In this document: in pieces, positions 62,025-62,088 of the stretch
How positions within the stretch are numbered: the first letter of the stretch is position 1
Layout of the letters: each line of letters begins with the position of its first letter
Assembly (NCBI GenBank): GCA_050123335.1
Contig: JASFHH010000003.1
Location: 6,615 to 70,614 of the forward strand
Length of the DNA stretch: 64,000 bases
Source of the DNA: Gammaproteobacteria bacterium
GTDB taxonomy: Bacteria > Pseudomonadota > Gammaproteobacteria > UBA12402
Reading direction: 5' to 3'
The notes under the pieces: generated by a model
Database searches by the model: none
What the model was told of the DNA's origin: nothing
What the model saw: the letters and a program-made list of their open reading frames with translations, nothing else
Position numbers and translations under genes: made by a program

Positions 62025-62088
62025 AGGTGTCAAGTCTAGACTTGAGACTTGACAACTACATCAAGTCTCAAGTCTAGACTTGACACCT
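62025..62088. repeat. large perfect palindrome at the mlaF/mlaE junction
   Basis: AGGTGTCAAGTCTAGACTTGAGACTTGA-caactaca-TCAAGTCTCAAGTCTAGACTTGACACCT. The right arm encodes the last 9 codons and the stop of mlaF (LGVKSRLET*). Confidence 0.7.

Follow-up and report, generated by a model that had tools for sequence, protein, structure and literature searches.

The 64-bp palindrome found at the mlaF-mlaE junction of the analysed DNA (hereafter the window, a stretch of 64,000 nucleotides from an uncultured gammaproteobacterium) is very probably one copy of a dispersed, non-autonomous hairpin mobile repeat, nearest in kind to the REPINs, that is lodged in the last codons of mlaF. The original prediction had named the coding insertion of a selfish palindrome as one possible origin, and this is upheld by the dispersed nature of the repeat unit, by the vestigial or empty site observed in the nearest relatives, and by further cases in recO and ribF. 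The family works like a REPIN, is not filed here as a proven member of that group, and adds a hitherto unreported family to a known class of selfish hairpin DNA.

The complete element occupies positions 62025-62088 and consists of two copies of the 28-nt unit AGGTGTCAAGTCTAGACTTGAGACTTGA in inverted orientation across an 8-nt spacer, confirming the perfect palindrome first noticed there. Its two arms, 62025-62052 (AGGTGTCAAGTCTAGACTTGAGACTTGA) and 62061-62088 (TCAAGTCTCAAGTCTAGACTTGACACCT), are fully complementary over 28 nt each, and pairing reaches 31 nt if one mismatch is allowed. Read on the minus strand, the former is the 3' arm in the mRNA, untranslated and intercistronic, and the latter is the 5' arm, which carries the third base of Leu262, codons G263-V-K-S-R-L-E-T270 and the mlaF stop. 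The spacer or loop between them (62053-62060) reads caactaca, tgtagttg in the mRNA, and holds an unused TTG (62055-62053). Both arms are capped by AGGTG/CACCT and contain the heptamer TCAAGTC/GACTTGA three times each (at 62030, 62039 and 62046, and at 62061, 62068 and 62077), and because the arms are built from this heptamer, each contains a nested 16-nt perfect palindrome, TCAAGTCTAGACTTGA.

Several measures set this structure apart from the rest of the window. Allowing up to three mismatches, 0.13 occurrences of the 16-mer TCAAGTCTAGACTTGA were expected in the window and two were found, both inside the element, and the heptamer is not enriched outside it. RNA folding of the 131-nt region gave -57.8 kcal/mol, against -24.2 +/- 3.7 for shuffled sequences (z = -9.1), none of the 200 shuffles folding as stably. 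Chance is thus excluded as the origin of the palindrome. When the window was scanned with a covariance model of the doublet, the mla copy scored 91.6 bits (E 1e-22) as the sole full family member, other hairpin families reaching 30-47 bits by structure alone without being members.

The mla operon is encoded by the minus strand and runs mlaF-mlaE-mlaD-mlaC-mlaB, and MlaF (62061-62873, minus strand, 270 aa) is identical to the NCBI MAG protein MGD9107793.1. As anticipated, the right arm of the palindrome supplies the MlaF C-terminus and its stop: the last eight codons, GVKSRLET, are read from the 5' mRNA arm, and the TGA stop codon (62061-62063, minus strand) is formed by the final three bases of that arm. 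The 3' arm finishes 2 nt ahead of the mlaE Shine-Dalgarno sequence AAGGA (62019-62023, minus strand), which is unpaired in the predicted fold, and mlaE follows with its ATG at 62013-62011 (61231-62013, minus strand, 260 aa, PF02405, E 2e-75). The original Shine-Dalgarno and ATG of mlaE therefore persist directly 3' of the element, and mlaF and mlaE are now separated by 47 nt, nearly all of them hairpin, in place of a stop/start overlap. The mirror peptide SSLKSRLDT, which had been proposed to be read from an upstream ATG of mlaE, does not survive inspection, as the sole upstream ATG (62058-62056) runs straight into TAG and cannot start an SSLKSRLDT-MlaE. The in-frame start is instead the TTG at 62055, in the loop, which is not used by relatives; MlaE starts as MI(K/N/A) in all of them.

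Neither a terminator nor a promoter was predicted at the element, terminator-like sites having been scanned in 61700-62400. The mRNA 3' of the stem reads UUAAGGAAAAAAAUG and lacks a U-tract, and an intrinsic (Rho-independent) terminator was discarded on both counts. The same applies to a hybrid promoter made from the outward-facing TTGACA at each element end, where no promoter-like site is predicted. Searches of Rfam 15 returned sub-threshold, generic miRNA-hairpin matches only (best 40.8 bits, cut-off 90.8), and a protein search with the element-encoded peptide, as a 44-aa artificial query, gave no match.

Junction DNA was then compared for five relatives, namely L001, L002, L004, L017 and L018, to which the proteins P0001, P0121 and P0122 can be added. 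Besides the window, the full element is reflected in P0001 (a JGI contig protein, differing by 1 aa) and P0122 (an NCBI MAG protein, identical). L001 and L018, whose mlaF genes share 87% nucleotide identity with that of the window, carry at the exact window insertion point a 13-nt apparent vestige of the form GGTGTC(T/A)GACACC (GGTGTCTGACACC in L001, GGTGTCAGACACC in L018), and their MlaF tails read DLGV* and DLGVRHL*. This 13-nt form may represent what a deletion has left, the footprint of an excision, or a favoured target. The element is absent from L017, the sister of the window (mlaF 90% identical in nucleotides), and from P0121, which comes from the window's own metagenome; both show a DLLG* tail and a 4-nt ATGA stop/start overlap. 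L002 and L004, with mlaF about 81% identical, also lack a palindrome, overlap mlaE through ATGA or ATGATTAA, and display the DLFxExxx type of tail seen in MlaF homologues. The junction state thus varies among close relatives between full, vestigial and empty, and the tails of the relatives differ from that of the window (DLFxExxx, DLLG, DLGV); conservation of the window's MlaF C-terminus in relatives without palindromic symmetry, the outcome that would have spoken against an insertion, was not seen.

Deleting exactly 62025-62088 in silico yields an MlaF ending in ...AKDFKEKND*, the TAA of which overlaps the mlaE ATG (AATGATTAA), and this excised junction has the architecture of L004 (...EDIFQKKEEKHD*, CATGATTAA). 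Removal of 62 or 65 nt, on the contrary, would fuse mlaF and mlaE. Since the exact 64-nt deletion restores a relative-like tail and overlap, the element is best regarded as a lineage-specific insertion into the last mlaF codons. For the window copy, a target duplication of 3 bp (TTA) was also contemplated and abandoned: no other copy shows it, and the corresponding 65-nt removal produces the fusion just mentioned.

The search for other genomic copies located the 28-nt unit at no fewer than nine unrelated loci in related genomes. The family unit, (A)GGTGTCAAGTCTAGACTTGAGACTTGA, also written GGTGTCAAGTCTAGACTTGA, recurs at many unrelated loci of uncultured gammaproteobacteria, and the outer (A)GGTGTC belongs to the conserved unit in every copy. 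The exact 21-mer AAGTCTAGACTTGAGACTTGA occurs on 11 metagenome contigs (10 of them from sample Ga0114923, which is also the source of relative L004) and on one GTDB MAG contig, and it is absent from the viral contigs, plasmids and phages searched. The contigs bearing copies belong to related organisms, as judged from other repeat families common to them and the window. Element copies were recovered across samples and assemblers (JGI Ga0114923 and Ga0209976, GTDB MAG JASFHF01). Their flanks are unrelated, with gene contexts that include recO, ribF, fumC, lpxH-like, HAD and STAS genes, and about one third of the family loci overlap coding sequence. A literature search for the core sequence found nothing.

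Copies differ in completeness and in the distance between units, elements measuring 63-114 bp and their interiors being unrelated. Inverted doublets have 7-9-nt spacers in the window, L006, L010, L014 and L015, and longer ones in L005 (39 nt) and L016 (58 nt), the second arm of the L012 doublet being decayed. The 33-nt singlets of L007 and L011, both with A/T-run flanks, fold alone as hairpins of 12-19 bp. Mini-forms of 13-19 nt also exist, such as GGTGTCAAGACTTGACACC in L006 and the GGTGTCTGACACC found in the window at 33550-33562, an intergenic site upstream of a Na/Ca-exchanger gene, where it forms a 17-nt palindrome when its flanking AA/TT are included. This window mini-form is identical to the mlaF-junction vestige of L001, and together with the one full copy it makes up the whole family content of the 64-kb window. 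Loops and spacers differ between family members and arms are conserved, the arms being identical between genomes only about 81-84% identical in housekeeping genes even when the spacers are unrelated. Nonetheless, the spacer cgattaaat is common to L012 and L014 at unrelated loci, which indicates that whole doublets have been copied. No flanking direct repeats or target-site duplications were detected in the 10 copies examined.

Some loci show additional features. Single units in L008, L009 and L013 stand beside a fragment of about 60 nt that is found repeatedly and corresponds to the 3' part of a tRNA-Leu(UAA)-like gene (L008 1-104; L009 78-190 and 2040-2150; L013 79-190 and 1574-1601), the units lying 12-20 nt past the fragment, in an arrangement that resembles att-type duplications beside repeat-rich protein genes. 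ARAGORN and Rfam reported no complete gene in the tRNA-like sequence of these three loci, where the 3' fragment was recognized by eye. At L014 5585-5610, the outer 11 nt of an element end are found in tandem (TTGACACCTAT TTGACACCTAT).

The window MlaF is not the only protein reshaped by the family. The RecO of L014 (Pfam RecO_N/RecO_C) ends in ...EGVKSRLET*, a tail identical to that of the window MlaF, while a convergent Hpt-domain gene at that locus takes its ...IGVK* end from the duplicated element end, and the HAD hydrolase of L006 takes its ...HGVKS* end from a mini-form. All these tails share one frame, GGT GTC AAG TCT AGA CTT GAG ACT TGA. In the ribF genes of L010 and L015, a 63-nt doublet (21 codons) is translated through in frame, and the resulting peptide, which includes (L/V)KSRLDT, takes the place of the native FGVxDKPV loop, whose length varies in the riboflavin-kinase module; a close RibF homologue (L019/P0129) is without the insert. 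Hence, MlaF and RecO have gained an identical GVKSRLET* tail in different genomes, and RibF has gained a 21-residue loop. The two ribF copies are 54/56 identical in their arms and 84% identical in their flanks, and their spacers, both of 7 nt, a frame-keeping length, are unrelated in sequence. The four insert-bearing RibF proteins are not monophyletic in protein trees: P0125 is sister to the insert-free P0129 (91%), and P0127 to the insert-free P0132. This non-monophyly means either that the element entered one site more than once or that short patches were transferred.

As for the mode of spread, copies are probably produced in trans by a single-copy enzyme of the RAYT or IS200-IS605 type, which would read the hairpin ends on single-stranded DNA. 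A tblastn search with IS200/RAYT queries gave no match in 177 kb, no HUH motif was found among the ORFs of at least 90 aa in the same 177 kb, and transposase Pfam families were missing from the 61 window ORFs and the 10 flanking ORFs; these are weak tests, since RAYTs are single-copy and only a few per cent of the genome is covered. Analogies with uptake sequences, dif/Xer and attC sites were rejected on sequence grounds.

Two patterns would not be predicted by plain random transposition: identical arms with differing spacers across genomes, and the hitting of ribF at one site in non-sister lineages. They lend some weight to a different reading, possible although we hold it to be doubtful, according to which the family is a site-selective, coding-compatible hairpin element served by a hairpin-specific recombinase, and neither an ordinary REPIN nor a MITE. 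Such an element would be targeted to, regenerated from, or leave an excision footprint at, a GGTGTC-N-GACACC core. This reading is considered on the grounds that (i) the same ribF codon position is occupied in at least two non-sister lineages whose nearest relatives are native, (ii) the native ribF DNA at the insert site (GGTGTAAGCGATAAACC in L019) resembles the element ends, (iii) the mlaF junction is full, 13-nt or empty among close relatives, (iv) the identical 13-nt GGTGTCTGACACC stands at an unrelated window locus, and (v) orthologous copies combine near-identical arms with unrelated spacers.

A classical MITE, that is, an internally deleted derivative of a DDE-transposase IS moved by cut-and-paste or copy-paste through 28-nt terminal inverted repeats, appears improbable as well. 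The terminal inverted repeats are indeed perfect over 28 nt, the variable size and unrelated interiors of the copies, with no transposase gene inside, would suit such an origin, and the Coxiella QMITE2 and Neisseria Correia elements act alike at gene ends. However, flanking direct repeats are found at none of the 10 copies, and the lack of target duplications around perfect-armed, hence young, copies disfavours a DDE-type MITE. Moreover, no IS with these ends occurs in the 177 kb, in the plasmid and phage collections or in viral contigs, and the inverted units that lie 2.3 kb from each other in L012 (2280 and 4645) enclose an ORF without a Pfam match. The unit is itself palindromic and exists as singlets, for which a REP-type repeat fits better than a TIR-type one.

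That the units might be operators of a dimeric DNA-binding protein, with TCAAGTCTAGACTTGA as the candidate site and the mla copy as a double operator, is regarded as very unlikely. The 16-bp core is a perfect palindrome, the arms are far better conserved across genomes than their flanks, and some copies do fall in promoter regions (between divergent genes in L007, upstream of the STAS gene in L016, upstream of fumC in L012). Nevertheless, several others are placed at 3' ends or within coding sequence, distant from promoters, their presence differs between close relatives at the same gene, and decayed mini-forms and singlets exist. A binding protein such as a transposase would still be compatible with the mobile-repeat explanation.

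The original prediction had also raised the possibility that the hairpin modulates MlaF:MlaE stoichiometry. As an evolved function, in the sense of a regulatory hairpin shaped in place as a stabiliser, processing site or translational coupler, this is extremely unlikely, even though a highly stable stem sits precisely in the gap that separates the mlaF stop from the mlaE Shine-Dalgarno, the mla genes are intact and the Shine-Dalgarno is accessible. The hairpin cannot be taken as an evolved mla-operon function because the sister lineages (L017/P0121) lack the element and retain the ancestral ATGA overlap, more distant relatives likewise keeping a stop/start overlap without it. Besides, the identical sequence is found at unrelated genes, even within the ribF coding sequence, and the stem has neither a U-tract nor a terminator-like site. 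Finally, although assembly errors can create perfect palindromes, a chimeric or fold-back join in the metagenome contig has a negligible probability and is ruled out by the tail-bearing MlaF of two assemblies (P0001 and P0122), by the element itself in independent samples and assemblers (Ga0114923, Ga0209976, JASFHF01), and by reading frames intact on both sides.

Accepting the junction hairpin as a mobile repeat, its consequences for MlaF can be evaluated against the Escherichia coli protein, in which Y261, L265 and L266 of the C-terminal extension dock at the groove of the neighbouring MlaF/MlaB (PMC7367683). There, replacing any one of Y261, L265 and L266 by alanine is tolerated and the triple mutant is only partly functional, whereas loss of the whole extension is equivalent to a null (PMC7367683). 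In the alignment, the insertion starts directly after the equivalent of L265 (D-L|G-V-K-S-R-L-E-T), and the L266 equivalent and all residues beyond are replaced by GVKSRLET. Judging from this alignment, one hydrophobic contact would be exchanged for G-V and a hydrophilic tail, a change that is probably tolerated.

Regarding expression, mlaE initiation probably retains a loose coupling to mlaF translation, since a ribosome at the mlaF stop would have to melt the stem. The perfect stem of 28-30 bp is also a plausible RNase III substrate, and a cut would fall upstream of the mlaF stop, leaving mlaF stopless. The MlaF:MlaE ratio might be affected, as a possible side-effect on expression, and for the host the element is probably neutral or mildly harmful on balance rather than an evolved control. 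The full, vestigial and empty junction states of close relatives offer natural controls for hairpin effects on operon expression. The window junction illustrates how a 64-bp selfish hairpin can enter the functionally important "handshake" extension of MlaF and break a stop/start overlap in a tightly coupled ABC-transporter operon with both genes remaining intact, and the family as a whole represents a compact case, in an uncultured lineage, of repeats reshaping the ends and loops of proteins.

Further repeats occur in the same operon and throughout the window. A different hairpin family (TAGGGGTCGGGGCTTTACATAATTACAA ... TTGTAATCATGTAAAGCCCCGACCC) is found at the mlaB 3' end (59571-59651), its first three bases being the mlaB TAG stop, and recurs at 19752-19830, 22671-22743 and 32471-32543, as well as in the MAG locus L016 (5720-5781). 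The mlaD|mlaC spacer (60586-60687) is about 135 nt longer than in L002 and harbours small, GC-rich hairpins that resemble REPs (GGATCCCGCGGTCAAGCCGCGGGATGAC); 34 consecutive nt of it are 100% identical to three L012 sites, with related copies in L007. Three repeat families have therefore struck the mla operon, each at a different junction, which suggests that hairpin repeats have colonised this genome heavily. Elsewhere, perfect or near-perfect inverted repeats of the ACTCGNGATTTTACAA type, with 11-nt loops, are present at 963-1005, 7161-7219 and 42791-42833, and those of the TTTTAAGAGATTTTGGGTTG type, with spacers of about 55 nt, at 16398-16519, 23415-23522, 27303-27406 and 28939-29049. A nested palindrome of about 165 bp (46707-46870) separates a PMT_2 glycosyltransferase gene from an MFS transporter gene, and a 75%-identical copy of it is seen just upstream of mlaF in L001 (2013-2158).

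Two protein-coding features of the window also deserve mention. A 539-aa protein encoded at 43121-44737 (minus strand) combines an F-box with six RCC1 repeats, a eukaryote-like layout typical of effectors of intracellular, amoeba-associated bacteria, and an F-box-like N-terminus is visible too in an ORF of L006. Directly upstream of mlaF and on the opposite strand, an ORF rich in Lys, Ser and Cys (62994-64000, plus strand; over 335 aa) leaves the window end and has no Pfam match.

Among known systems, the closest counterparts are the REPINs, REP doublets that form hairpins and depend on RAYT tyrosine transposases for their mobility (Bertels & Rainey; PMC3337134, PMC3116915). As in REPINs, units are conserved, spacers are variable, singlets look like remnants and some flanks are A/T runs (PMC3337134). 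The likeness extends to a unit that is a short palindrome (28 nt holding the 16-nt perfect TCAAGTCTAGACTTGA), to the pairing of two inverted units with a variable spacer into one long hairpin (window, L005, L006, L010, L012 and L014-L016), and to the lack of target duplication at the 10 copies. By definition, REPs lie outside genes, and those of enterobacteria and pseudomonads have a 5' GTAG. On the contrary, the conserved 5' bases are here (A)GGTG in every copy, the arms are built of a repeated heptamer, and copies enter coding sequence (the mlaF, recO and HAD tails, and ribF in frame), REPINs being overwhelmingly extragenic. The defining partner of a REPIN, a RAYT gene (Y1/HUH transposase, PF01797) bracketed by such units, was looked for in the 177 kb and not found, which is a weak test for a single-copy gene.

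The Correia elements of Neisseria (CREE) are similarly short hairpin repeats that end in TIRs and are transcribed together with adjacent genes. They measure 100-155 bp, cause duplication of a TA target and contain promoter elements as well as an IHF site. Target duplication, IHF site and promoter elements are not seen in the present family. The Correia stem is cut by RNase III with altered mRNA levels, and both hairpin cleavage and C-terminal tails supplied by MITEs are documented (PMC10969869, PMC5896051). In Coxiella burnetii, a gammaproteobacterium of intracellular type, QMITE2 is a hairpin repeat that likewise exists in full and small REP-like forms, overlaps gene 3' ends and, in one copy, gives enhC a C-terminal extension and stop; RNase III processing of its stem has been proposed (PMC5896051). 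It differs by its length of about 190 bp and by 7-9-bp direct repeats at full-size copies, of which there are none here, and the literature search for the core sequence revealed no sequence relationship between both families.

The Rickettsia palindromic elements (RPE) share with the present family the in-frame presence of a palindromic repeat in housekeeping genes, inserts of this type being tolerated since the added residues end up in a tail or in a loop at the protein surface. They are set apart by size and host, being about 100-150 bp long, alphaproteobacterial and of other families, compared with 63-65 bp in gammaproteobacteria here. They are also distinguished by outcome, as the family described here more often replaces C-termini and provides the stop than it is read through.
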